Below, in pieces: positions 2,343 to 54,924 of a stretch of 64,000 bases of DNA. Each line of letters starts with the position of its first letter. Within the stretch, counting starts at the first letter, position 1. The notes beneath the pieces are model-generated. The model had not been told where the DNA came from, made no database searches, and saw only the letters and a program-made list of their open reading frames with translations. A program made the translations under genes and the position numbers. This DNA comes from a virus (Duplodnaviria > Caudoviricetes), in the IMG/VR virus record IMGVR_UViG_3300033074_000233, positions 1 to 64,000 of that record; one strand, written 5' to 3'.

Positions 2343-4238
2343 TTACGTCCCCTGTGGATTGATTCGACCTTTCACGCTGCGAAGAACCGTGTCATAACGG
2401 TTAGGATCGCTAATGCTAGCCAAGCCCTTGGCAATATCAATGTTGGCTTTTTTGTGGGCAGCGCGCTGGTTGTGGATGTATTTCTTCTTGCCTGTTACAG
2501 TGCGACCAACAACTTCAAAGTCCTTCTCGAAGTTACGGGCCAGCAACGGAGTACGCTTAATACCACCTTTGAAACCAATCTTGTGGAGTTCAGCGCGCAA
2601 GGAGGCCTCAGCAGTTCCAGTGTCGTCAACAATGTCACCGCCCTCATCACCACCTTCAATTTCGCTAAAGTCGTAGTCGTTGCCTTCGCCATCACCTTGT
2701 TGCTGGCCACCAACGGCCTGCAGTTTCGCGTTGTACTCCATAAGGCGCTTACGGACAACTACGTCTTCATCCATTTCTTGCAGGATGTTGTCGAGTTGCA
2801 GACCGCCAGCAGCGGCAATCAGACGGATAGGAATCGGGATTCCTTTCTCGGCCATTGCGTCAAGCATTTCCATGGTATCACGGTCAGTGTGTGGCTCAAG
2901 CGACTTGTGCCAACGTACCGTAGGAATAATGTACTTGGAAGCATCGTTGACGCGGAAGTTCAGACCAGCATCGCTGGCATGCTCCTTCATCAACTTGTGT
3001 TGCTGATCCTTGGTGAAGCCGTTGACCGCAGCAATTACCGGGAACAGTTTGTTCGTGAACATTTTATGGGTGAAGTATTCACGATAGGCCTTCAGGTTCT
3101 CGATGAATACTGACAGAGAAACTTCTGCGGTGTTGTACGACTGGTCACCAGACAGGAAGGTCTCGCTAATACCCAACGCGCGCATTTTCAGGCCGTTGAG
3201 AACATCGACCATATCCGTCCACTTCCAGAAGTCACCACCTTGGCGAATCTCAGAAGCGGTAATGGCCTGGCGAGTTGCAATCGTAGCGCCCAGCGGATCA
3301 AGGTCGGCCTGCTGGAACAGTGCAACTAGCGCGGCGAGTTCTTCACCCGTTGGTTCCCAGTTGTCATCACCAGCCTGTACGTGCAGGGAAGAACGCTGAC
3401 GCTTGGACGCTTCGGTGAGCGTTCCGCGAATCATTGTTTTCTCAAGCAGGTAAATAGGCAGAATGCGCTTGAAGTAAGATTGTGGTAGTGGATCGGTCAG
3501 GCTACGACGCGCCATGTACAGCGTCGTAAGCGGATCAAGCGTGTACGAGCCTTCCTTCATTGCAGCCAGCAGTTGCTGTGGAACCAACTTGTGCAGGCGA
3601 GTAATGGCCTCGTCACTGGAGTTCAGGAACTCCTCCATGTCTTTATTCATGTTCACGGTAATAACCGGGTCCATGCTATAGAAAGGCATGTACTGCATTT
3701 CGCAGGTGTCGAGTTTGTACGGCAGCAAGTCCGTGAAGCCTTTTACACGACGATCATAAACCGTAGTAGCCGCAAATTCACCATCGACCAAGTAGCAGGT
3801 ACTGATCTCTGGGTTGATCGACTTAAAGTTCAGGCGATCAATGGCCGAGTTGTACGTATCCAACATTTTGTTGGGCGCACCACTCAAAGTGAAGTTGGAG
3901 AAAGGCAGCGTGGACATTAAGTCCACAGTCGAACCAGAAATGGCGTCGTAGTGATAAATGTCACGATAAAACTTCCGCATCTGCGGCAGTTGGGTGTCGT
4001 TGACAATACCAGTAAGAATTAAATCAAGTTGACCACGCTGTCCAGAGCCAATAGCACTCAAGGACAGGTTGTTCATTGAACTACCGCCACCAGGTGCATT
4101 AAGGTTGGCAGTCTCTGCCTGAGACAAGCCCATAGCCGCGCCACGCTTACGCTCTGGACCAGCGCCGCGCTGATGACTTAGCAGCCTCAATTTCTTTCCT
4201 TCATTTGTTACGGCAACACGGTTCTTTACGCGAAACAT
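2343..4238 (-). CDS. Portal protein
   Basis: 631 aa, between terminase and prohead protease; portal-like segments (FYRDIYHYDAI, ALGISETFLSGDQSYNTAEVSL); acidic/Gly C-terminal linker. Confidence 0.75.
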   Translation of the reverse strand: MFRVKNRVAVTNEGKKLRLLSHQRGAGPERKRGAAMGLSQAETANLNAPGGGSSMNNLSLSAIGSGQRGQLDLILTGIVNDTQLPQMRKFYRDIYHYDAISGSTVDLMSTLPFSNFTLSGAPNKMLDTYNSAIDRLNFKSINPEISTCYLVDGEFAATTVYDRRVKGFTDLLPYKLDTCEMQYMPFYSMDPVITVNMNKDMEEFLNSSDEAITRLHKLVPQQLLAAMKEGSYTLDPLTTLYMARRSLTDPLPQSYFKRILPIYLLEKTMIRGTLTEASKRQRSSLHVQAGDDNWEPTGEELAALVALFQQADLDPLGATIATRQAITASEIRQGGDFWKWTDMVDVLNGLKMRALGISETFLSGDQSYNTAEVSLSVFIENLKAYREYFTHKMFTNKLFPVIAAVNGFTKDQQHKLMKEHASDAGLNFRVNDASKYIIPTVRWHKSLEPHTDRDTMEMLDAMAEKGIPIPIRLIAAAGGLQLDNILQEMDEDVVVRKRLMEYNAKLQAVGGQQQGDGEGNDYDFSEIEGGDEGGDIVDDTGTAEASLRAELHKIGFKGGIKRTPLLARNFEKDFEVVGRTVTGKKKYIHNQRAAHKKANIDIAKGLASISDPNRYDTVLRSVKGRINPQGT

Positions 4239-4251
4239 GGCTATTTACCTT

Positions 4252-4452
4252 TTAGGCGTCTTTGCAGGGAAGCGCAACTCGGTGCTCAAGGCAGACGAAC
4301 GAAGGAATGCCGTTGCACTCAAGCAGACGCATTTGTTTATCGCACACCGGGCAGCAATCCACGTTGTTAATTGAATTGTTGTTGGCCGTGACCTGAGTTT
4401 TAACGCTTGCAACTTCAGGATTTAATGGGTCTAGGCGTTTGATTTTAGACAT
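4252..4452 (-). CDS. Small zinc-ribbon protein
   Basis: 66 aa, CPVC...CLEH; GAGGA SD and promoter-like motif upstream. Confidence 0.65.
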   Translation of the reverse strand: MSKIKRLDPLNPEVASVKTQVTANNNSINNVDCCPVCDKQMRLLECNGIPSFVCLEHRVALPCKDA

Positions 4453-4475
4453 GAGTTATCCTCTTATCTCATGTG

Positions 4476-4487
4476 ATTAAATTAGTG
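4476..4487 (-). promoter_or_regulatory. Recurrent promoter-like motif CACTAATTTAAT
   Basis: Intergenic, 24 nt upstream of ATG 4452; near-identical copies upstream of six other genes. Confidence 0.6.
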
Positions 4488-4489
4488 AA

Positions 4490-6100
4490 TCAATTACGAG
4501 AAAACGTAGAACCTCCGCCACCTCCACCACCCATTACTGCGGCAATTCCCTGTCCACGGGCAGAAGATACCTGTGATCCAGAGAAGCCACCCCCAGCAAC
4601 AATAGCAGCCAGGCCTCCACCTCCGCTGCGTTTCCTTGTCTGTAGGAAATTAAGTACGATCTCATTATCCAACAGAAAGGTCGAGGCCAATACCACAGCA
4701 CGGAATAAATCATCCGTTCTATTTGTTCCCTTCACTACGCTGCGCTTGGAATCCTGTACGGTCAAGCATTGCATTAGCAAGTGGGCCGAAGGCTTGAAGT
4801 CGAAACTATTCGGATAGCCTTCACTGACTGGGCCAATGATTTGTTCCACCGGCATTTCCAGTTTCGGGAAGAATATACGCTCGCCTTCAAGGTAGGAACG
4901 GAACAAAAGGAAATCATCGTACTTGACGGAGTATTGTTCCGTGACCAAGTTCAATTTAACGTCCTTCTTTTTCTTACCGTGAATATCCGTTGTGTCGATG
5001 CCCTTGTTGAAGTCTTCTTCCAATTTATGCAACAGGAATAGGCTGTTCCAACGGTCGGCTACTAGATAACGGACGTTGAAGGCTTTAATCATTTCCTCAA
5101 TACAGAACTTAACCACGGCACTATGGTTAATTACGTTCTCGCCTTTCTTGGGAATAATCTCCATAATGGCGCTGTAAACCACGTTCTTATCTTCGCGGTG
5201 ACCGACAGCGATTGCGAAACTGTTGTCGGAGAATCCAGCGTCGATTGCCATGACGGACGCAGGCTGACTGGACATTGGGTAACACTTAACTTTGGCCGCC
5301 CGGAATATCTTTCCGTCCGCGTTACGTCTGTGGATATATTCATAGTCTACCTTGTTCTTAACTAGAGTGAAGGCCTTGTTGACAACTTCCTCGTTGCCAA
5401 TGAAGGGTGCTGCGGTGAGCGGAGGTTCAGCGCCATAGTCACGCGCAGCCGTCAGCGGACTACTGCTAAAGGCATTGGCGATCTCAGGATGCTTACGTGG
5501 GAACTTCGGGTTGATTTCCCAAGTAGGTGCGTGAACCGCAAGGATGGTTTTGCTATGCCTGTTGTTAGTCACCAACTGCATGATTTTATCTTGCACGTCG
5601 GATGGACTGGATACGTTCAGGGCGTAGGCAGAAGGCAGGTTGTTGTAACCCTGTTTCATCAGGTCGTAAGACGCGCCGCGAACGGTTAGCAGTGAACGGT
5701 CTAACGCCGTGTAAATGCCGTCTGCCGAAATGGTGATCTTGCCTGAGGCGTTCGCACTGGCATCGAACCAACCAAGTTCGTCGATTGCGTAGATATAACG
5801 GGTACGACCACGCAGGGTACGTTGGTTAGGAACGGACGGATACAGCATCAGTTTCCGGTGACGGTAACTAATGTAGGTGTCCATCTGCTTGTACAGTTCC
5901 TCACCGTACTTGTTGTTGTAGTGCTTCATCAGTTTGTGGTATTCACAGTTATGAACCTGAATACCATTGGCATAATAATTATGGTGGTCCTTTACCTCTA
6001 TGTCATAGACGTGCCTAGTACCTACGGGTTTTATGGAAGTCACCCTAGACACCCGTATAGGCTTACCGTCAATGATAACCTCTTGTACACTAGCATTCAT
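4490..6100 (-). CDS. terL: Terminase large subunit, C-terminal fragment, preceded by split-intein C-half
   Basis: First 51 aa are IntC (VYDIEVKDHHNYYANGIQVHN/C); then LRGRT, Walker B YAIDELGWF, motif III SSP, RNase H-type nuclease acidic motifs MAIDAG, ADRW, TDDLFRA. Confidence 0.9.
   Translation of the reverse strand: MNASVQEVIIDGKPIRVSRVTSIKPVGTRHVYDIEVKDHHNYYANGIQVHNCEYHKLMKHYNNKYGEELYKQMDTYISYRHRKLMLYPSVPNQRTLRGRTRYIYAIDELGWFDASANASGKITISADGIYTALDRSLLTVRGASYDLMKQGYNNLPSAYALNVSSPSDVQDKIMQLVTNNRHSKTILAVHAPTWEINPKFPRKHPEIANAFSSSPLTAARDYGAEPPLTAAPFIGNEEVVNKAFTLVKNKVDYEYIHRRNADGKIFRAAKVKCYPMSSQPASVMAIDAGFSDNSFAIAVGHREDKNVVYSAIMEIIPKKGENVINHSAVVKFCIEEMIKAFNVRYLVADRWNSLFLLHKLEEDFNKGIDTTDIHGKKKKDVKLNLVTEQYSVKYDDFLLFRSYLEGERIFFPKLEMPVEQIIGPVSEGYPNSFDFKPSAHLLMQCLTVQDSKRSVVKGTNRTDDLFRAVVLASTFLLDNEIVLNFLQTRKRSGGGGLAAIVAGGGFSGSQVSSARGQGIAAVMGGGGGGGSTFSRN
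5948..6100 (-). mobile_element. Split intein C-half (IntC, 51 aa) of terminase
   Basis: Blocks F and G ending His-Asn; +1 Cys at 5945-5947. Confidence 0.95.
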
Positions 6101-7283
6101 TTAGGCGCTCTCCTTTTTCTCCCATAATAAGGAGAGTGAATTTGTAGCCTTGTTTTCTGCAGGCCTGACGTTTCGCTCCTAAGGATTTAGCAACACTTGC
6201 GGTATAGGAACTCTTAACTTCTATTATTCGATTTTGAGAAACTACAAATATGTCAGGATGATAAATACGATCCTTACCTTTCCAGGTATATTTAATCGTA
6301 GGCATGTCTGACTCAAATCCACAACGTATGTCCTTAGGCTTTACGCCTTTTGTTTTTATTATGTAGTCAAGAGCCTGCGGCTCATAGCCCTGTACTTGTA
6401 CCTTTCTCTTTCCAAGATTATAGGCCTTAAAGGTGTAAGCACTTTTTAGGTTCTTCTCTAGGATCTCTTTATTCTGTAAGGCGTAGTCAACGCCGTAGCG
6501 TTCGCGCATAGTTGCTCGGCTTTTTGCCTTAACCTCAGGTCTTTGGTTGCTGTACTCTACTCCGTATTTACACATAGAGTTAAACCGCATTTTATCCGGA
6601 GCACACTTAGGACAGCCAGACTTTTTTAGTAGGTTTCCGGGCAAAACTTTCCAGGTATGACTACATACAAGGCATTTTGCCTTAGTGTATTTGTTCATGC
6701 CTGGGTAGCCACCAACAAGACAAATTTTCCTTTTCTTTAGTTTTGCCCTTCTATAAAAAATAGCCTCAGGCATTAGTCTAGCCTTAGATATCCTTTCACC
6801 CACAACGCACACGCAACTTATATTTCCGGTTATTAGTGCTTTTGGGCTAGCTCCTTTCTCCTTGCCACAGAGTAGGCAGGCTACACGAAAACGAGAGTCC
6901 GTTTTCTTAGATATAAGGCGAAAGTTTTTATTTTTCTTGAGTGCCTTAGTTACAGATACAAAGGTAGCGTTATGCCGCTCAATCCAGCCTTTACTCTGCG
7001 TAACCCTATAAACACCGGTGCATTTTAAGGAACAAGTCTCATTAAACGGACTGTCTGGATTGTCGCGTCTGTTAGTAGAAAGTTTCGTAACCTTTTTTCC
7101 GCATACTTTACACTCCGGATAGCCATTATCAACTATATAAGCAGCAGCCTTCAAAGGCAGAGTTTTACATAAACTTTCTAGGCGTTTGGCTACCTTCTCC
7201 TCAAGAAAAGGTCTTATGGCCTTGAGGCTTGGAGTACGTCCTGTAGTTGTACGCTGTTCTTCGAGTGCAGAGATAAGAGTCAT
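6090..7283 (-). CDS. Free-standing putative homing endonuclease (Zn ribbons, KYGV-type repeats, PD-(D/E)XK domain) between the terminase halves
   Basis: Multiple CxxC; KYGVEY/RYGVDY repeats; C-terminal VQGYE...YHPDIF...IIEVKS; AT-rich codon use unlike flanking genes. Confidence 0.85.
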   Translation of the reverse strand: MTLISALEEQRTTTGRTPSLKAIRPFLEEKVAKRLESLCKTLPLKAAAYIVDNGYPECKVCGKKVTKLSTNRRDNPDSPFNETCSLKCTGVYRVTQSKGWIERHNATFVSVTKALKKNKNFRLISKKTDSRFRVACLLCGKEKGASPKALITGNISCVCVVGERISKARLMPEAIFYRRAKLKKRKICLVGGYPGMNKYTKAKCLVCSHTWKVLPGNLLKKSGCPKCAPDKMRFNSMCKYGVEYSNQRPEVKAKSRATMRERYGVDYALQNKEILEKNLKSAYTFKAYNLGKRKVQVQGYEPQALDYIIKTKGVKPKDIRCGFESDMPTIKYTWKGKDRIYHPDIFVVSQNRIIEVKSSYTASVAKSLGAKRQACRKQGYKFTLLIMGEKGERLNEC

Positions 7284-7295
7284 ATTGATACCTCA

Positions 7296-7325
7296 CGTTG
7301 TTACACTTAAATTAGTGTAACAACG
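7296..7325 (-). promoter_or_regulatory. Perfect 12-bp inverted repeat enclosing the promoter-like motif, directly upstream of the endonuclease SD
   Basis: cgttgttacact-taaatt-agtgtaacaacg; motif at 7306-7317; SD GAGGT at 7290-7294. Confidence 0.75.
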
Positions 7326-7331
7326 CAAAGT

Positions 7332-8429
7332 TTACAAGGTAACAACTAAGTCATCTTCCGTTAGTTCTGAGACTTTTTTCCAGATAACCGTAGTCCTATC
7401 CTCAGATAAACACCGAACTTTGTGTTCGTCTGTCGCCACTAGCACCTGACCCGAGTCTAAAACTATTTCTTTGCACTCCTGTACCCCATTATCGAACAGG
7501 TGCTCTACTTTATTTGAGCCTTCGAAGGTAGCAACGCGCATACCAGGCTTAATGTATTCAATCGCTAGGGTGGTACCATCTTCTATAGTTATCTGAGTTC
7601 CTTCTGCAATGCAATACCACGTACTGTCGGCAATAGCATCAACAATCGGTGTCCACAACAGTTCCACTGCACCAGCAAAGTTCAGCGAAACGAACGTAGC
7701 CGTCAAGGTCACGTTAGATAGGCCGGTGAACATTTCTGCTGGACGCTGTAGTTTGAGGTATCTGTGGTTGATGTAGGCAACCAAGAAAGAAGTGAACAAG
7801 GACTTACCAGAACGCTGACCCGCACAAAAGGCCAACTCGGAGTAAGGCTTGAGGAGTTTCTTTTTGACAAACTCGCGCTTGGTTCCTTTGCACTTAGGAC
7901 ATACTCCGTGTTCCATGAGTTGGACAACATCAGGGAAGTTCTTCGCCTGAAAGCCAACGGGAATGTTACGAATGTCCTTCATCACCTTGCCCTTAGTACA
8001 AACAGGGCAATACTCGCCAAATAGTTTCAGCGCAATCCACATCTGTCTAGCAAAGGGCTTAATACCAGTGAAGCCCCACGTCCGATCAAAGCAAAAAGCC
8101 CAAAAATTGGGCATAGTTGGGATATCTCTGTCGTCCACTTTCAAGTCTTTTGGAACCGGGGTCTCATCATCCAAGACCTCATCCAGCACCTTCTCTAGGT
8201 CTAGTTCCTTTCTCGCTAGTTCCTTGCTATCCTTCAAGGCGAAAGGTGAAGGTGCGTATCCTGTCGTAGAATCAATTTCTCCGCCATCCTTGAACGGAAT
8301 ACCGTTAGCATCCACGATTGAGATTTTGTGGGCACCCATAGGCGACCACTTTTCACACTTGTATTCGGCTCTTTTATTTGCGTAAGTACACTTCAGGAAC
8401 TTACCACAAGATAGGCAACTGTCACTCAT
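7332..8429 (-). CDS. terL: Terminase large subunit, N-terminal fragment, ending in split-intein N-half
   Basis: Adenine-binding PFARQ, Walker A AGQRSGKS, Zn-finger inserts; last 93 aa are IntN (CIAEGTQIT...ATDEHKV...) then TAA. Confidence 0.9.
   Translation of the reverse strand: MSDSCLSCGKFLKCTYANKRAEYKCEKWSPMGAHKISIVDANGIPFKDGGEIDSTTGYAPSPFALKDSKELARKELDLEKVLDEVLDDETPVPKDLKVDDRDIPTMPNFWAFCFDRTWGFTGIKPFARQMWIALKLFGEYCPVCTKGKVMKDIRNIPVGFQAKNFPDVVQLMEHGVCPKCKGTKREFVKKKLLKPYSELAFCAGQRSGKSLFTSFLVAYINHRYLKLQRPAEMFTGLSNVTLTATFVSLNFAGAVELLWTPIVDAIADSTWYCIAEGTQITIEDGTTLAIEYIKPGMRVATFEGSNKVEHLFDNGVQECKEIVLDSGQVLVATDEHKVRCLSEDRTTVIWKKVSELTEDDLVVTL
7335..7613 (-). mobile_element. Split intein N-half (IntN, 93 aa) of terminase
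   Basis: Block A CIAEGTQI; block B TDEH; acidic end SELTEDDLVVTL. Confidence 0.95.
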
Positions 8430-9049
8430 TATTTCCTCACATCAGGCTTGAAGTATTTTTCTATCAGTACCTGGCGCAAGGCTGGTGTTAATTGGAGTTT
8501 GGTGCATAGGAAGTCGAAGGTCTTCAACCGTATTGCATCCTGAAACATAGTCTGCATAAGGCTAAAGGACATTTCCTCGACCTCAGACTCTGTAATCAGT
8601 GCGACGGTTTGACGGGCACGTTCTACCGCGTCACCTAATGCTACCTCAATGGGTGCGACTTCTTTGATGAAGAATTGCTCGATGGAATCCATGTGACCCT
8701 TAAGGTCGCTGACAAACTCAGCACGAATACGCTTGTCCACTTTCACCACGTCCGAGACCAACGTGGCTACCTTCTCCTCTTCGGTTTTGAGCGCAGACTC
8801 CCAGTCCCTTCTCAAGGATTCAAGTGTGCGCTCTTCCTTTCGGATAAACTTGTTGCTGATATTACGCCGTACAAGTACGGGATTACTTACGTCTAAGACT
8901 TCTGCTTTCTTTACTGGCTTCTTAACCCGAAAGAAAGAAGGCTCGAAGTCCTCACCTACTCCATCGTACATGCGATCATCTACGGCAAACTTGCTGGACC
9001 TTTCATTACCTGTTATTGCTCCGAAAGGTAATGTCTTTTTGTCAACCAT
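8429..9049 (-). CDS. Hypothetical helical protein
   Basis: 206 aa, coupled to terminase N-fragment by a TAATG overlap. Confidence 0.7.
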   Translation of the reverse strand: MVDKKTLPFGAITGNERSSKFAVDDRMYDGVGEDFEPSFFRVKKPVKKAEVLDVSNPVLVRRNISNKFIRKEERTLESLRRDWESALKTEEEKVATLVSDVVKVDKRIRAEFVSDLKGHMDSIEQFFIKEVAPIEVALGDAVERARQTVALITESEVEEMSFSLMQTMFQDAIRLKTFDFLCTKLQLTPALRQVLIEKYFKPDVRK

Positions 9050-17341: not shown

Positions 17342-19273
17342 CTATGATTCGTAGTCGCTGAGGATTGGGTAATTTTCATCCAAATAGGTCTTCAACTTGG
17401 AGTTGTTCCAGTCACGATAGACCTGCTTGTACGCCGTGTCATAATCAATCTGCGGATACAGCGTACAGTGGTCCTTCAGTGTACGCTTAATGCACTCATC
17501 CAGACTGAATGCTTTACCCTTGAACGGACCCTTAGGCCCATGTATCTCCTCATCAAATCCTTTGAGCGACCAGTCCCATTTGTACGTCTTGTCCTGTGAC
17601 GCACCAAACTCCATTTCAATCTCACACGGCACCGTGAACTTCAGGTCAAAGTGCTTGTCGTAGTAGCCCTGAACACCCATAGTTGCACACCACTGCAGAA
17701 TCTGGGCAGTAGCCAGAGCCATATCAAAGGTGGCTGAGGTGAAGATGGAATCATGCACCATCACCTCAATACCAATAGGGCAGTGCGTGTCTTCGGTCGT
17801 TAGCCTTTTCAGTTTCAACAGGTACTCATAAATGTGCTGCTCAAACAGGCGAGCACCTGTATGACCAAAGTCTGCGCCCATGCCTTGAATCGGAGAGTTC
17901 TTGGCTCGACGATCCATTGCACCTGCGATACCTTTGTCACCAGTCAAGTGGCCGAACAAGTGACGACGACGGCCCAAGGCAGACTTGGCAAACAAGTGCT
18001 TACGGCCAAATTCGGCTGTCCAGTTCAACCAATCCGATGCTACACGGAATCGTTTGAAGAATCTGTCATACAGGTCTTTGGCAAAGTCGGCGGACTTCCT
18101 CAGGTCTTTGGCCAAAGTCTTATAGGACTTACCGTAAATTACACCGAACGCTACACCTTTTACTGCATCACGCATTTCGTCCGTGATCTGGGAGAAGTCC
18201 ACACCAAAGAAGAAATTCACGTTTATACGGTGAATGTCACCCTTGTTACCCAGTTCTATTGCAAACTTTGCCAGGCCTGTCTTAGCCCACTTCTGACGGA
18301 GTTTACGACCAATAGCAAATACACCAGCGAGAACCGTGTCACCGCTGATGATGGACCATACACGAACTTCGTGTGCGCTATAGTCCATCTTAATGATAAT
18401 GCACCCAGGCGGCGGTGCGAACGTGCGCTTAATGTGCTTCGCCATCTCACCGCGTTGAGGTACCTGCTGCAACGAGGGATCACTACTATTGGATCGTCCA
18501 GACAACACCTTAAAGAAGCCATAATTAGGACGCATACGACCGTCGATCTTACCGTCATCGGAGTCGATCTTCTTGGCGAAAGCATCCACGTACGAGGACT
18601 TGATCTTCTTGGCCTTCTCCAGCGTATTGAGTAGGGCTACTTCTGGAACTTCCTCGTACTTCTTCTTAAAGAACTTACCCAGACTTGGCTTCTTGGACTT
18701 CTTGCTTAGTTCAGGCTCAAGATCGAGCACGTCCACATACATAACAATCTTGTGCGCGGGCTTGCTTATATCGAAGATTCTAGGTGCCTTGTTGAACAAT
18801 CCTTTTCCAACAGGTACGTTCATATCGGCCAGCAGGATTTTATTGGCTTTAGCCGCAGCGTCTGTTGAGTTAAGTTGGTTCGTTATATCCTGAATAGCCT
18901 TTGAGATTGGAGACTCGCGTGTCTTCAAATAGGATAGGTACTTGCGGTCCATTGCAACACCACGTTGTTCCATACTGGCGAATACATGGATGTTGTTGGA
19001 CATTTGTCCAACGGAAACACGAATATGATCCTTAGAATAGGACTGGGTAACACCTTGATCACGGTATACCAGGTTCTTGGCACGCTCACGCTGCTTGTCA
19101 TGTATCGCAAGAATTGCCTGCGTATCCATAGCACAGTTATGTACTAAAACGGGGTTCTCACTAATTTCAGTAGAGACAAAGAGGTTATGATTATCCTCTA
19201 CTTCTATGTCACAGACCGTGGGTGTGTTCCCAAGGTTCGTGATACGTTTAATAACTACCGTTGCGGTGCCCAT
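17342..19273 (-). CDS. polA: Family A DNA polymerase, C-terminal fragment, preceded by split-intein C-half
   Basis: IntC (CDIEVEDNHNLFV...VLVHN/C); SGRSNSSDPSLQQVP, motif A MDYSAHEVR, motif B RDAVKGVAFGVIYG, NSPIQG, motif C VHDSI. SD GAGGT lies inside the antisense endonuclease ORF. Confidence 0.93.
   Translation of the reverse strand: MGTATVVIKRITNLGNTPTVCDIEVEDNHNLFVSTEISENPVLVHNCAMDTQAILAIHDKQRERAKNLVYRDQGVTQSYSKDHIRVSVGQMSNNIHVFASMEQRGVAMDRKYLSYLKTRESPISKAIQDITNQLNSTDAAAKANKILLADMNVPVGKGLFNKAPRIFDISKPAHKIVMYVDVLDLEPELSKKSKKPSLGKFFKKKYEEVPEVALLNTLEKAKKIKSSYVDAFAKKIDSDDGKIDGRMRPNYGFFKVLSGRSNSSDPSLQQVPQRGEMAKHIKRTFAPPPGCIIIKMDYSAHEVRVWSIISGDTVLAGVFAIGRKLRQKWAKTGLAKFAIELGNKGDIHRINVNFFFGVDFSQITDEMRDAVKGVAFGVIYGKSYKTLAKDLRKSADFAKDLYDRFFKRFRVASDWLNWTAEFGRKHLFAKSALGRRRHLFGHLTGDKGIAGAMDRRAKNSPIQGMGADFGHTGARLFEQHIYEYLLKLKRLTTEDTHCPIGIEVMVHDSIFTSATFDMALATAQILQWCATMGVQGYYDKHFDLKFTVPCEIEMEFGASQDKTYKWDWSLKGFDEEIHGPKGPFKGKAFSLDECIKRTLKDHCTLYPQIDYDTAYKQVYRDWNNSKLKTYLDENYPILSDYES
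19136..19273 (-). mobile_element. Split intein C-half (IntC, 46 aa) of DNA polymerase
   Basis: Ends VLVHN; +1 Cys at 19133-19135. Confidence 0.93.
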
Positions 19274-20350
19274 ATGAAAATTACCTCAGAACAAAAGAAG
19301 TTCCTGTCTCAGTATCAGAATAAGTCGAAAATAAACTGGTACGAAATTAAGCGAGTGTACCCTGAAATACATGACACTTTACAAGACAAAGCCCAGAAGA
19401 AAAAAGTAAGGCCAAACAAATTACTGTATATTCTTGTATTTGGACACCCCAAATGTGCAGGTACTAACTGTGAAAGCACTAATTTAGGATTCAAGAACTT
19501 TAAGCGGGGTTTCGATAAGTTCTGCTCGAAGAAGTGCGCTAATAGTTCGCCTGAGTCTAATGCTAAGCGTGAGCAGACCTTCCTAAAAAACTACGGTGTT
19601 ACTAACCCAGGTAAGTGCGAGAAAATCAAAAGGCAGCGTCGAAAAACTATGGTGAAAAGGTACGGTGTCGAATACACGGCTCAGTCCCCGAAACTGCGTA
19701 AGAAAATGGAAAACACCTGTTTAGAGAACTACGGCGTGACCTCTCCTATGCAGTCTAGCGTGGTTAGAAAACGCTGCGAGGCTACGTCAATAGAACGCTA
19801 CGGAGTTGCAAGCCCAATGTCAGATCCAAGTGTCCAAGCAAAGTACAAAGAAACCTGCCGAAAAAAGTATGGAGTAGAACATCCGTTTCAGGATCGTGAG
19901 GTTTTTGAGAAGCAACAGAAGTCAGGTTTCAGCCTAAAGAAGATAACTATAGCAGGAAAGAAATACCAACTTAGAGGCTATGAGTCTGATGCCGTTATAT
20001 ATCTGCATAAGAATCTTAGAGTAAAGCCAGAGCATATACTAACTACATCGAAAGATGGGCTTCCAACGATACGATGGACAGACAAGAAGGGCAAAGGTCA
20101 TGTGTATCATCCTGATCTTAAAGTTAAGGTTAAAGGAAAGTGGTTCTTGGTTGAGGTAAAGAGCGATTACACCTTAGGACTCCGCAGTGACGGTAGCAAG
20201 ACCATGTTTTACGTTGCAAGACGCAAAGCCCAAGCGTGTATTGACGCTGGTTATAGGTTTAAGTTACTCCTAGTGCAGAAAGGAAAGGTCTCTGTTGTTT
20301 CTGACTTCCACGAAACTAAACGAAAGGACCTTATATCACGGTACTGTTAA
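19274..20350 (+). CDS. Antisense free-standing putative homing endonuclease between the polymerase halves
   Basis: Only convincing plus-strand gene. Five YGV repeats; C-terminal LRGYE...YHPDL...LVEVKS; paralogue of 6090-7283. Start taken as ATG 19274 (ORF is open from 19187). Confidence 0.85.
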   Translation: MKITSEQKKFLSQYQNKSKINWYEIKRVYPEIHDTLQDKAQKKKVRPNKLLYILVFGHPKCAGTNCESTNLGFKNFKRGFDKFCSKKCANSSPESNAKREQTFLKNYGVTNPGKCEKIKRQRRKTMVKRYGVEYTAQSPKLRKKMENTCLENYGVTSPMQSSVVRKRCEATSIERYGVASPMSDPSVQAKYKETCRKKYGVEHPFQDREVFEKQQKSGFSLKKITIAGKKYQLRGYESDAVIYLHKNLRVKPEHILTTSKDGLPTIRWTDKKGKGHVYHPDLKVKVKGKWFLVEVKSDYTLGLRSDGSKTMFYVARRKAQACIDAGYRFKLLLVQKGKVSVVSDFHETKRKDLISRYC

Positions 20351-21877
20351 TACCTTAATTTTCTCTCCGTCAATCAGGTCCTTAACGCGGACGTATTCTT
20401 GTCGTGTCTCTGACCAAACTTTGTGGTCCTCTGTAAGACGTATCGTACCCCCCTCGTACTCGATCTCAAACATATCCTGAGTAGTCGTGTGTGTAGACAC
20501 GTTTAGACAGTTTTTGTACTCGGTCTTGTTCGTTTCGTGGTTGAATGAAAGGACTTTGCCATAAGCATCTTTATCTAGAACAAAGTCTTTCAGTTTAACT
20601 TTTCCCGTCTCCGTTACGACGTAGGCTTCTGGATCTATGCAGTAGTCTTGGAAGTCCGGATCAAATAGATCAGTTGCTTCCATGTTGCCCCGATCCTTCT
20701 TGGAGAAGCCTGCGGTATAGTAAAAATCGTTACCGTAGGCACAGGTTACCTGTGCCAATCCACCCATAGGGTACTCAGTGTCTTCTAGGAACCGTAGGGT
20801 TTCATCGTGGGCATGCTCGCCTGCTTGAACGTCATACACTGGCCAGTACATGAACGGAATACCTAGAGCCTGTTTGACCTGTGTTATGTCAAACTTTGCG
20901 TTGAAGGCGATCAGGTATTTCTTGTAGTTCATATCCACCTTACGCATGAAGAACTCGCGTAGGCGTTTCTGTATGTATGCAATTTCCTTAGGCGAGAAAG
21001 GGGTATCCTTGTGTAGAATAGGAACCACAAAGCCCTTGTCCTTGTCAACAGAGAACTGGACGATCAGGAGTTTGTTTTTGATGCGGTTCAGGTTTGCTGT
21101 TTCTGTATCGAAGGCAATACGATCAGCGTTTTCGATAATCTCCATCATACGGTCGAACTTCTTGATGGTGTCGATCAGGTGTGCCTTAACCTGAACGTCA
21201 ATCGCCCATGGAAGTTTGCCGTGGATGAGAGAGGAGATATTGCGAGAGAAATAGCCGAGAACGTAAGCGGCCTTGAGCACACTTTCGTTATCGTTGTCAT
21301 CTTCCTCGTCAAGATTCTTAGGCGGTGTCAGGGAATCAGCGTAGTCGATTGTTGAACAGACCTTACGCTTCTTACCTCCTAATTCAACCTTGTGTACCCA
21401 GCCCATCTTGCAAATGGCATTCTCAACCTTGTGATTGAGTAGAAACTTGGTTGGATTATCGCCTACCAAGAGAATATGGGTTGGGTCATACTTCTCGATG
21501 AAGCCTCTTACACGCTTGGCTGCTGTGGAATGCGACTTCGCTCTGTCATCCGGGTCCAGATGGTAGTTCTTGAAGAAATTGAAGTTGACCGCTGCGAAGG
21601 CGACGTCCTTTTCCTCAAGACCATAGGGTTCGGCTATGGACTCTGCGTACTCATAGCAGTTCTGGAGTGCAGTAAGGGATACACCAGAGAGGAGAGCACC
21701 GTTTTTCAGGTCCTCAGTAGATACGTGTTCCAGTACGAACAGGACACGCTTTTTCGCCCGCTTCCAATTCTTCTCAATTGGAAGGGTAAGATTGAATGGC
21801 TTGCAGTCTTTGGAAAGACGAGCCCAGTAATCAGGAACCTCATTCTGAAATGAGATTCTTGCTATCGACTCAAACAT
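20336..21877 (-). CDS. polA: Family A DNA polymerase, N-terminal fragment (UDG-like domain plus 3'-5' exonuclease), ending in split-intein N-half
   Basis: ExoI IAFDTET, ExoII AFNAKFD, ExoIII Tyr right before the intein; last 101 aa are IntN (CIDPEAYVVTETG...LTEDHKV). Confidence 0.9.
   Translation of the reverse strand: MFESIARISFQNEVPDYWARLSKDCKPFNLTLPIEKNWKRAKKRVLFVLEHVSTEDLKNGALLSGVSLTALQNCYEYAESIAEPYGLEEKDVAFAAVNFNFFKNYHLDPDDRAKSHSTAAKRVRGFIEKYDPTHILLVGDNPTKFLLNHKVENAICKMGWVHKVELGGKKRKVCSTIDYADSLTPPKNLDEEDDNDNESVLKAAYVLGYFSRNISSLIHGKLPWAIDVQVKAHLIDTIKKFDRMMEIIENADRIAFDTETANLNRIKNKLLIVQFSVDKDKGFVVPILHKDTPFSPKEIAYIQKRLREFFMRKVDMNYKKYLIAFNAKFDITQVKQALGIPFMYWPVYDVQAGEHAHDETLRFLEDTEYPMGGLAQVTCAYGNDFYYTAGFSKKDRGNMEATDLFDPDFQDYCIDPEAYVVTETGKVKLKDFVLDKDAYGKVLSFNHETNKTEYKNCLNVSTHTTTQDMFEIEYEGGTIRLTEDHKVWSETRQEYVRVKDLIDGEKIKVLTVP
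20339..20641 (-). mobile_element. Split intein N-half (IntN, 101 aa) of DNA polymerase
   Basis: Block A CIDPEAYV; block B TEDH; followed by TGA. Confidence 0.93.
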
Positions 21878-31544: not shown

Positions 31545-32486
31545 TTAAGCGGCGCGATTCTTTTCATAAACACGAATCCTTTTGTATAATTGCTTCTTGG
31601 TCATTACAACAGTCCAACGTTTTTCTAGGTTGTCTTCCCAAGAAACAAGTTGAAGATTTGCAGGATGTGCAATAACTTCGGGTGGAATTTTATGCTCAAA
31701 GCCTTCTTTTATGCCAAATACATGATCTATTTGTAGTGCGCCTTTAACTCCACACTTACCACGTTTTGAGAGTAGTTTCTTTGGCAAATCGTTTTTACCA
31801 AATCTGCTTGTTAATGAATGAACTTTGTTCCTGTATTTGGAAAAGGCCTTTTGATCTTTTACTTGATAGCCCATCTTAACTCTAGCGGCTCGACCTTTTC
31901 TAATAATTTCTGCTCTTACTTTGTCTAGGTGCATTATGTGTTCGACGCCATACTTCGCTAAGAAAGTTGCTTTAGTTTTAGCCCTGGATTTAGCCTTGAA
32001 CTCTTTTGATCTTGACTCGCGTTTTAGCCTGCGCTTTTCATGTACCTCATCTAGGTATGAGGGATTGGATACTCCATACCTCTTTTTCATTCCCTTGATA
32101 CGGGCCTTAGTTAGTTTTTCTTGGTAGTTTGGACCTAACCTTCTTTCCAAGGTTCTTCTTTGGCCGTCTTTTATTTTCTTTATCTCGGACTTTGATTTTG
32201 AAGACCAAGCCTCTCTTACTTTTTCTCGCCAAACATCTTTTACTTTTGAGTTAAGTGTACCACAAGTTCTAGAGCAGTGTTTAATGAAGCCTCGTTCTAG
32301 CCCAAGGAAGTGTGTTTCATTACTACAGCCTTTCCTTGCACACATACCTTCAGTGTCTTTTGCTCTGTATTTTATGTAGTAGTCTCTTACTTTTAGATTG
32401 TGTTCTTTTGATATGTGTATTCCCAATCCATTATAGGTTCTTGACTTGTATCCACAAACCTTGCAGGTACGAATAATAACTATCAT
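31545..32486 (-). CDS. Free-standing HNH homing endonuclease with Zn finger and YGV repeats
   Basis: C2H2-like N-terminus; RYGV/KYGV repeats; C-terminal QIDHVF...HPANLQLVSWEDNLEK; very AT-rich. Confidence 0.8.
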   Translation of the reverse strand: MIVIIRTCKVCGYKSRTYNGLGIHISKEHNLKVRDYYIKYRAKDTEGMCARKGCSNETHFLGLERGFIKHCSRTCGTLNSKVKDVWREKVREAWSSKSKSEIKKIKDGQRRTLERRLGPNYQEKLTKARIKGMKKRYGVSNPSYLDEVHEKRRLKRESRSKEFKAKSRAKTKATFLAKYGVEHIMHLDKVRAEIIRKGRAARVKMGYQVKDQKAFSKYRNKVHSLTSRFGKNDLPKKLLSKRGKCGVKGALQIDHVFGIKEGFEHKIPPEVIAHPANLQLVSWEDNLEKRWTVVMTKKQLYKRIRVYEKNRAA

Positions 32487-53985: not shown

Positions 53986-54924
53986 TTAACTAGATAAGCC
54001 ATTGAGTTCATTGAAGGCTACCTTGAACTTTGTCCATGATAGTTCTGTCCAATTCTTGGGAATTTTGTAGCATTCCGTGCAGGTTCTAGTTTTCCTAGTG
54101 GAAATTTTTGGCATTAACAAGCAGAAGTCGTAGCCAAGTTCACTGCACCTAATAGCCTTACGCCGGTTTGTATAGTACGTTGACTTAACCTTGAACAGCG
54201 TATACGTGGACTTTACTTCTACGATCCGATTAAGGTCTTTTATATAGAGGTCAGGATAATATCTTTTCCAGTGGCCTTTATAGAGGTATCTTATGGTTGG
54301 AATATGCTTGGATAGACCGGCTTCGATTCTATCAGGATTTACCTTTTTTATCTTGGTCAAATACCTTAGGGCTGCATCCTCATAACCTTGAACGAAAAAT
54401 TTCTTTCCACCGAGTTTGATGCGTCTCCTCTCAAAAAAGTTACCTTTTGACCTGTCTGTATTGGAACAGAGCCTATCAAACAGGTCGCTCTGATGCTTAC
54501 TAAGGCTATCTTTTTTGCACTCGGGACACCTGTTGTATCCAGCCTTAGAGGTACAAACGTCAGAAGGTTTCACATCCCAGGAACATGAACACTTCAGGCA
54601 AGTGTGTAGAGAGGCTATTAGCATACCTTTGTAAGGCTCTGCTAATGCAACTTTTTTCCTTTTGCATATTACCGCATACTTGGCCTGCGCTTGAATCGAC
54701 CTAACAGACTCAGGCCCGACATGGGAGCAAGACCTGCATCCACTTCCAGTACGGGTTATGAACGAGGGTTTAGTCTCCCAAGTACGCTCGCAAGTAAGAC
54801 ACTTATGACTACTTGCAACCTTCCAGCCCTCATATTTAATACACCTGATTCCTTTCTTGGCTATGAGGGCCTTGTATTCCTTTTCTCTTTCTGAGCGATC
54901 ATACCTTAGATCGTAATTCGCCAT
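53986..54924 (-). CDS. Free-standing putative homing endonuclease (third PD-(D/E)XK paralogue)
   Basis: Zn ribbons; VQGYE...YYPDLY...IVEVKSTYT; AT-rich; inserted between tail genes. Confidence 0.85.
   Translation of the reverse strand: MANYDLRYDRSEREKEYKALIAKKGIRCIKYEGWKVASSHKCLTCERTWETKPSFITRTGSGCRSCSHVGPESVRSIQAQAKYAVICKRKKVALAEPYKGMLIASLHTCLKCSCSWDVKPSDVCTSKAGYNRCPECKKDSLSKHQSDLFDRLCSNTDRSKGNFFERRRIKLGGKKFFVQGYEDAALRYLTKIKKVNPDRIEAGLSKHIPTIRYLYKGHWKRYYPDLYIKDLNRIVEVKSTYTLFKVKSTYYTNRRKAIRCSELGYDFCLLMPKISTRKTRTCTECYKIPKNWTELSWTKFKVAFNELNGLSS

Follow-up and report, generated by a model that had tools for sequence, protein, structure and literature searches.

A naturally split intein and a DUF7487 nuclease gene divide the large terminase gene of a PaBG/Lu11-like jumbo phage

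The large terminase subunit (TerL) of a PaBG/Lu11-like jumbo phage is divided between two genes, each carrying one half of a naturally split intein, with the gene for a free-standing DUF7487 nuclease lying between them. All three genes are on the minus strand of a 64,000-nucleotide (nt) stretch, hereafter the window, which is the start of the 215,992-base IMG/VR virus record IMGVR_UViG_3300033074_000233. The terminase is nearest to those of NCTB, PaBG, GR7B, Erwinia/Dickeya jumbo phages and Lu11 (38–42%), and both halves match phrog_17415, terminase large subunit (E 1e-52 for the N-terminal and 1e-133 for the C-terminal half). The coordinates of the open reading frames (ORFs) bear out the layout described in an earlier note made from the sequence alone, in which an N-terminal half ending in the N-terminal intein piece (IntN) is followed by the endonuclease gene and then by the C-terminal intein piece (IntC) with the remaining half. 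Motif positions likewise place Walker A in the N-gene and Walker B and the nuclease motif in the C-gene, cutting the ATPase domain itself (Table 1). With the cut located between Walker A and Walker B, the halves must come together for DNA packaging; the sequences make it very highly probable that they do so by protein trans-splicing.

Joining the two exteins (residues 1–272 with C-gene residues 52–536) gives a 757-residue protein that aligned as one block with nine intact terminases, gap-free at the junction, and 96 of 97 further intact homologs also had no gap within 8 residues of it (residues 265–280). The join proposed in the earlier note, WY+CEY, is thus colinear with uninterrupted terminases. 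The closest intact allele, P0002 of locus L018 (751 amino acids, 72% identical), has the same gene order and lies on a 170-kb contig. Alignment with intact terminases places the break in a variable stretch after a helix, outside any motif. The order helicase, ORF, TerL, small ORF, portal is common to the window, PaBG, NCTB and locus L018.

The intein halves carry the complete class 1 residue set: Cys1, TxxH (here TDEH in block B, intein positions 61–64), the block F Asp, His-Asn and Cys+1. The first four of these features were kept in 19 of 19 inteins checked. With 93 and 51 residues, a stop codon, a separate start and different frames, the pair is a canonical naturally split intein, and the proposed 93-residue IntN closing the N-gene and 51-residue IntC ending in His-Asn before a Cys were both recovered. 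Comparison with intein hidden Markov models agreed: IntC scored 33.5 bits, above the 15.6-bit cut-off of the intein C-terminal profile TIGR01443, IntN alone gave only sub-threshold matches to Hint/intein profiles, and its family profile matched solved inteins such as gp41-1 (E 2e-6). IntN is acidic, as anticipated (net charge −9, isoelectric point 4.5), whereas the anticipated basic head of IntC is weak (net +1, with 6 Lys/Arg against 5 Asp/Glu, and +4 within residues 11–30); across loci the charges range from −5 to −12 for IntN and from −4 to +3 for IntC. A model of the IntN–IntC complex reached an interface score (ipSAE) of 0.78, the best of 3 controls scoring 0.00, and its runs agreed in at least 95% of contacts, with a predicted local distance difference test score (pLDDT) of at least 77 for the partners. 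The mark applied is reached by 58 of 80 solved pairs and by 2 of 110 mismatched pairs, and because similar complexes have already been solved, a pass indicates likeness only.

The N-gene and the endonuclease gene share one frame, separated by two stops (TAA and TGA), and the C-gene lies in another frame, overlapping the endonuclease gene by 11 nt; read-through therefore cannot yield a single protein. The shared frame, in a metagenomic record, would also suit a dead terminase gene, or a contiguous intein with an in-frame endonuclease that errors have made to look split. Such an artefact would need two stops plus a frame change, and independent assemblies already contradict it. Locus L017, from another sample (run SRR32414321), has the same three genes at equal lengths (93%, 84% and 93% identity); at the DNA level it is about 86% identical, with stops and overlap unchanged. 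The split point is shared with 20 other, diverged loci, which have start codons of their own. Between the window and L017 the ratio of nonsynonymous to synonymous substitution rates (dN/dS) was 0.02 for the N-extein, 0.05 for IntN (dS near saturation), 0.16 for the nuclease, 0.07 for IntC and 0.06 for the C-extein, placing both intein halves under purifying selection. The 54-nt spacer, including flanking codons, has 1 change while about half of synonymous sites have diverged. We regard the artefact as having a negligible chance of being right; misassembly, a concern of the earlier note, is unlikely given the same three genes under purifying selection in L017. As a separate observation, the IntN DNA (7335–7613) is just 74% identical to that of L017, with flanks at 84–88%, which hints that the IntN segment was replaced through recombination.

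Two other ways of living with a divided gene were considered. The intein pieces might hold the halves together non-covalently, with splicing slow or absent, making a two-chain enzyme like Aeh1 NrdA after mobE insertion; T4-like phages have intein-less genes in two pieces (PMC2988022), and the break lies past a helix in a variable stretch, not in a motif. We consider this improbable: residues needed for the chemistry only (Cys1, the block B His, Asn and Cys+1) are invariant across inteins about 48% identical, and Cys+1 is nearly absent from empty alleles and is therefore kept for splicing. Less probable still, at a very small chance, is joining at the RNA level by a group I or II intron, or by ribosome hopping. 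Phage terL introns with nearby nucleases do exist, as in ICP1 (PMC10448857), but no Rfam match was found up to E 1 within 4300–8600, the C-half has its own Shine–Dalgarno sequence and start codon, N-termini vary across loci, and the gap consists of a coding gene plus 48 nt. The proposal that packaging depends on trans-splicing, with splicing itself the predicted step, is supported by the gap-free colinearity, the conserved splicing residues, the purifying selection and the failure to find a second TerL gene in the record, which is about 84% complete.

A single-sequence scan of viral contigs gave no close relative of the locus; alignment-based scans did. At exactly this site, protein searches found C-halves led by IntC (about 25) and N-halves ending in IntN (14), and 22 loci, the window included, have both halves. 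The same two junctions recur in all 22, so the split is not due to chance. A DUF7487 gene lies between the halves in 17 of them (broken or short in L026, L112 and L138), and other genes or none in the rest (Table 1). The same site holds a contiguous mini-intein of 133–142 residues in three loci (L110, L114 and L137) and is empty in 97 homologs. Besides the intein at this site, the terminases of L029, L030, L110, L112, L113, L114, L115, L118 and L119 carry further contiguous inteins, in Walker A and close to Walker B (around residue 325), and some of the ORFs reach 1100–1700 amino acids.

On a tree of C-exteins (59 empty, 34 split and 2 mini-intein rows, picked from search matches), the intein-bearing state is scattered and needs 21 changes, 14 of them forced by starred branches, a count that cannot separate gain from loss. 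The window allele is sister to the intact P0002 and P0003, inside a clade of ten empty alleles, and the insert has a GC content at third codon positions (GC3) of 0.38–0.43 against 0.53–0.57 in the exteins. The patchy distribution and the insert GC3 fit a mobile cassette. At +1 the 97 empty alleles have Gln (32), Lys (20), Thr (10), Ser (7), Cys (1) or another residue (27), and Cys is present in each of the intein-bearing alleles shown. The nucleophile thus moves along with the element, likely through co-conversion during homing, a process described before (PMC2988022). The best tree joins the L114 mini-intein with the split L112 (95/90), suggesting that split inteins may have re-fused into mini-inteins and that nucleases may have been swapped repeatedly; the L110 mini-intein resembles a deletion across the split point. 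In approximately unbiased (AU) tests, a single clade was rejected neither for the trio of contiguous mini-inteins (p 0.125) nor for the trio of inteins with HNH genes (p 0.065).

The middle-gene product (397 amino acids) combines CxxC zinc-finger modules of CapR-like type, a DUF7487 region (profile match above cut-off, E 1e-34) and a C-terminal TnsA-like PD-(D/E)xK domain, for which the Pfam Tn7_TnsA-like_N match fell below cut-off (E 4e-4). CapR-type fingers are DNA-binding modules in phage homing endonucleases (PMC10448857). Residues E301, D344, E355 and K357, in the motif GYE..PD..EVK, are invariant in 12 terminase-linked copies. The structure model had a mean pLDDT of 82 and a predicted template modelling score (pTM) of 0.35. 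Foldseek found no match at E 0.001 for the whole model, and a wider structural aligner placed only residues 281–397. There TnsA was the best match (residues 281–390; Z 8.2, root-mean-square deviation 3.0, 103 residues aligned), followed by other PD-(D/E)xK folds, and the top 25 matches were nearly all of this fold. A Vsr-like (EDxHD) endonuclease was considered and rejected, with no EDxHD motif, no DUF559 or Vsr Pfam match, and lower scores for Vsr (Z 6.0) and I-Bth0305I (Z 5.5) than for TnsA. In the literature searched, which had most subscription journals outside it, we found neither a mention of DUF7487 nor TnsA-like phage homing endonucleases. Elsewhere, in L022, a DUF7487 gene (67–1146) overlaps a DnaB-like helicase gene at its start, and the helicase gene may be a further fractured or invaded one.

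The nuclease gene is flanked by candidate control elements. The 3′ arm of an RNA hairpin contains its Shine–Dalgarno sequence (GAGGU, 7290–7294), and the 5′ arm and loop contain CACTAATTTAA. The genome has this motif 7 times (0.17 in shuffles); 6 of the copies are intergenic, and most lie 15–60 nt upstream of a gene on the same strand. It is probably a late promoter; its core, TAATTT, occurs in 8 of 21 spacers, with about 0.02 expected in each. The start codon of the C-gene and its probable Shine–Dalgarno sequence (GGAG) lie within the 3′ end of the endonuclease gene, and the two genes overlap in other loci too. In six loci (L020, L022, L023 and L141–L143), DNA resembling the start of the C-extein follows directly on the IntN stop, just before a promoter-like motif (16 of 21 matches; p about 0.003 for each of three loci tested). 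This DNA could represent a duplication scar or serve as an operator in the style of I-TevI. A search of the terminase locus in the window, with its own empty site or that of L018 as query, detected no such operator-like copy.

These data bear on whether the nuclease drives the spread of the intein. Splicing could be real and the nuclease a passenger that does not target terL, the intein spreading by ordinary recombination or descent while various nucleases lodge in a tolerant gap. A passenger would suit the finding of three or more unrelated nuclease types and one gap without a gene at this position, the broken or shortened genes in three loci, and three more DUF7487-like genes in the genome. 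Against this, DUF7487 occupies most split loci, and terminase-linked copies and three copies from other sites fall on opposite sides of a branch (91/83, not starred, in a poorly resolved nuclease tree). In addition, the catalytic residues are invariant, nuclease dN/dS is 0.16–0.19, and the C-extein-start copies lie beside the promoter in six loci, as expected of a self-binding site. We therefore judge the passenger unlikely. A homing role, to which the patchy tree distribution, the foreign GC3 and the travelling Cys+1 also point indirectly, is likely.

The following account, taken whole, appears highly probable. A mobile cassette (IntN with its stop, the hairpin with its late promoter, the DUF7487 gene and IntC) would have inserted in terL between the two Walker motifs, A and B, of the ATPase domain. 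Precursors of 41 kDa and 60 kDa would be translated apart, and IntN and IntC would associate into a Hint fold. Class 1 splicing (Cys1 acyl shift, Cys+1 attack and Asn cyclization) would then yield a 757-residue, 85-kDa terminase whose junction differs from intact relatives solely in having Cys as its +1 residue. In mixed infection, intein-free terL is most likely cut by the endonuclease, and recombination repair would copy the whole cassette, Cys+1 codon included. On long upstream transcripts the hairpin would block translation of the nuclease; transcripts starting at the loop promoter would lack the 5′ arm and permit it. Splicing, cleavage, homing, and the activity and timing of the promoter are all modelled here on known class 1 inteins and T4-type homing endonucleases.

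Several points weigh against this account. The scarcely basic IntC gives no ground for assuming fast, charge-driven assembly, and the TnsA fold match is modest. Pairwise identities of intein, nuclease and extein showed no significant rank correlation across 7 loci. Recombination with empty alleles, leading to loss, could account for part of the patchiness. Among cultured phages in the collection, none carries this allele; only UvsX inteins about 36% identical matched. A broader reading, which we offer tentatively as possible though short of probable, is that DUF7487 represents an undescribed family of TnsA-like homing endonucleases that moves a three-part cassette, its intein already split, between terminases of only about 40% identity and into a site without a native nucleophile, bringing its own Cys+1. 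Several lineages would repress themselves through the target copy after the IntN stop, and some mini-inteins would be re-fused split ones, the reverse of the usual model.

The AceL-TerL, GOS-TerL and Cat-TerL inteins sit in T4-like gp17. Like them, the intein in the window is a naturally split TerL intein with Cys+1 (PMC11766414); their atypical split type, with an IntN of 25–37 and an IntC of 104–115 residues, does not apply to the 93/51 division at the usual split point seen here. The closer parallel is the fractured genes reported in 2009 by Dassa, London, Stoddard, Schueler-Furman and Pietrokovski (PMC2677866), whose hosts include gp41, IMPDH, DnaE, NrdA, NrdJ, DNA ligase and terminase, so that this layout of split inteins with free-standing endonucleases, which the earlier note took as established, has been known since then. 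As in those loci, the host gene is cut by a split intein with an endonuclease gene between the halves, the split falls between motifs N4 and C2 (93/51 residues, within their 88–105 and 33–54), a hairpin with a late promoter, here putative, precedes the nuclease (15 of 16 there), and the nuclease gene overlaps the start of the C-gene. The promoter motif is CACTAATTTAA in the window and T4 TATAAATA in theirs. Their nucleases are Vsr-like or GIY-YIG, in contrast to the DUF7487/TnsA-like PD-(D/E)xK enzyme here, and their one terminase case is atypically split (122-residue C-part), like AceL-TerL and GOS-TerL and unlike the PaBG/Lu11-like jumbo-phage TerL.

Within the same terminase family, Y3, SNUABM_5, Lu11, HRDY3 and PhiXhv-16 also have an intein in the ATPase domain (PMC7412058), but theirs is in one piece and in Walker A (about residues 202–206 of the joined protein), some 67 residues upstream of the site in the window. 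Pseudomonas jumbo phage MIJ3 likewise has a fractured essential gene, a split PolB intein with an HNH gene, differing in host gene and nuclease family and belonging to an unrelated phage group; a contiguous mini-intein related to it exists in another phage (PMC6892783). In T4 I-TevI, I-TevII, I-TevIII and segB and in Aeh1 mobE, as proposed here, a hairpin hides the ribosome-binding site and a late promoter lets late transcripts escape; these elements differ in lying in group I introns or intein-less genes and in having operators resembling the homing site, none of which was detectable at the window's locus (PMC2988022). The fractured-gene design is thus known, and every testable feature of the 2009 loci is present here. 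New are the insertion site, the nuclease family, the imported nucleophile and the breadth of states; neither this site nor any split terminase intein in a jumbo phage was found in the literature searched.

Other inteins and DUF7487 genes occur in this genome. A second fractured gene, at 17342–21877 of the window, encodes a family A DNA polymerase (PolA). Its intein and that of the terminase have just 38 of 144 residues in common, and the two pairs may therefore be orthogonal. The free-standing DUF7487 gene between two probable tail genes is preceded by the promoter-like motif (one change) in a hairpin, with the same Shine–Dalgarno spacer as the terminase nuclease. Intein C-terminal matches in three reading frames outside the window are probably contiguous inteins (Table 1).

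Table 1. Features of the terminase locus, of related loci and of the remaining genome (window positions unless stated otherwise).
Feature	Position or loci	Strand	Details
N-gene	7332–8429	−	365 aa (amino acids); TerL N-extein and IntN
TerL N-extein	7614–8429	−	residues 1–272
Walker A (GQRSGKS)	7800–7820	−	N-gene residues 204–210
IntN	7332–7613	−	93 aa, N-gene residues 273–365; Cys1 codon 7611–7613; TAA stop 7332–7334
RNA hairpin, 18 bp	7290–7331	−	−27.5 kcal/mol, z −6.5; 0 of 200 shuffles as stable
Probable late promoter	7307–7317	−	CACTAATTTAA; in hairpin 5′ arm and loop; putative function
Middle gene	6090–7283	−	397 aa; free-standing endonuclease
C-gene	4490–6100	−	536 aa; IntC and TerL C-extein
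IntC	5948–6100	−	51 aa, C-gene residues 1–51; block F Asp33, His50, Asn51
Cys+1 codon	5945–5947	−	directly after IntC His-Asn
TerL C-extein	4490–5947	−	485 aa; first residue Cys+1
Walker B (YAIDELG)	5771–5791	−	C-gene residues 104–110
Nuclease motif AIDAG	5234–5248	−	C-gene residue 285
Second copy of probable late promoter	4477–4487	−	before a 66-aa gene and the portal gene
Portal protein	2343–4238	−	next large gene after the TerL halves; context
PolA N-half	20336–21877	−	ends in 101-aa IntN, Cys1 at 20641
DUF7487 gene between PolA halves	19187 or 19277–20350	opposite
PolA C-half	17342–19273	−	starts with 46-aa IntC
Fourth gene, partial DUF7487 match	31545–32486	−	without the nuclease part of the profile
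Free-standing DUF7487 gene	53986–54924	−	between two probable tail genes
Intein C-terminal matches	record 111561–113036, 116048–118699, 125816–128188	+	within reading frame, outside window
DUF7487 gene between TerL halves	window, L017, L020, L022, L023, L026, L028, L029, L112, L113, L115, L119, L138, L140–L143
HNH-like gene between TerL halves	L027, L106
HNH-AP2 gene between TerL halves	L118
DUF723 gene between TerL halves	L139		no match to DUF7487 profile
No gene between TerL halves	L030
C-extein-start copies	L020 4068–4100, L022 4064–4100, L023 3999–4030, L141 2572–2600, L142 2575–2600, L143 2549–2575

The locus leaves the view of how fractured genes work unchanged. It suggests that these inteins can settle at sites lacking a conserved Cys, Ser or Thr, it gives DUF7487 a testable function, and it makes about 22 natural split-intein pairs of one undescribed allele available for ligation-tool screening. 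One site displays nearly all states of the 2009 model (empty, contiguous mini-intein, split with at least three nuclease types, and split without a nuclease), so that a single family allows tests of which way intein splitting runs and of how mobile split inteins are.

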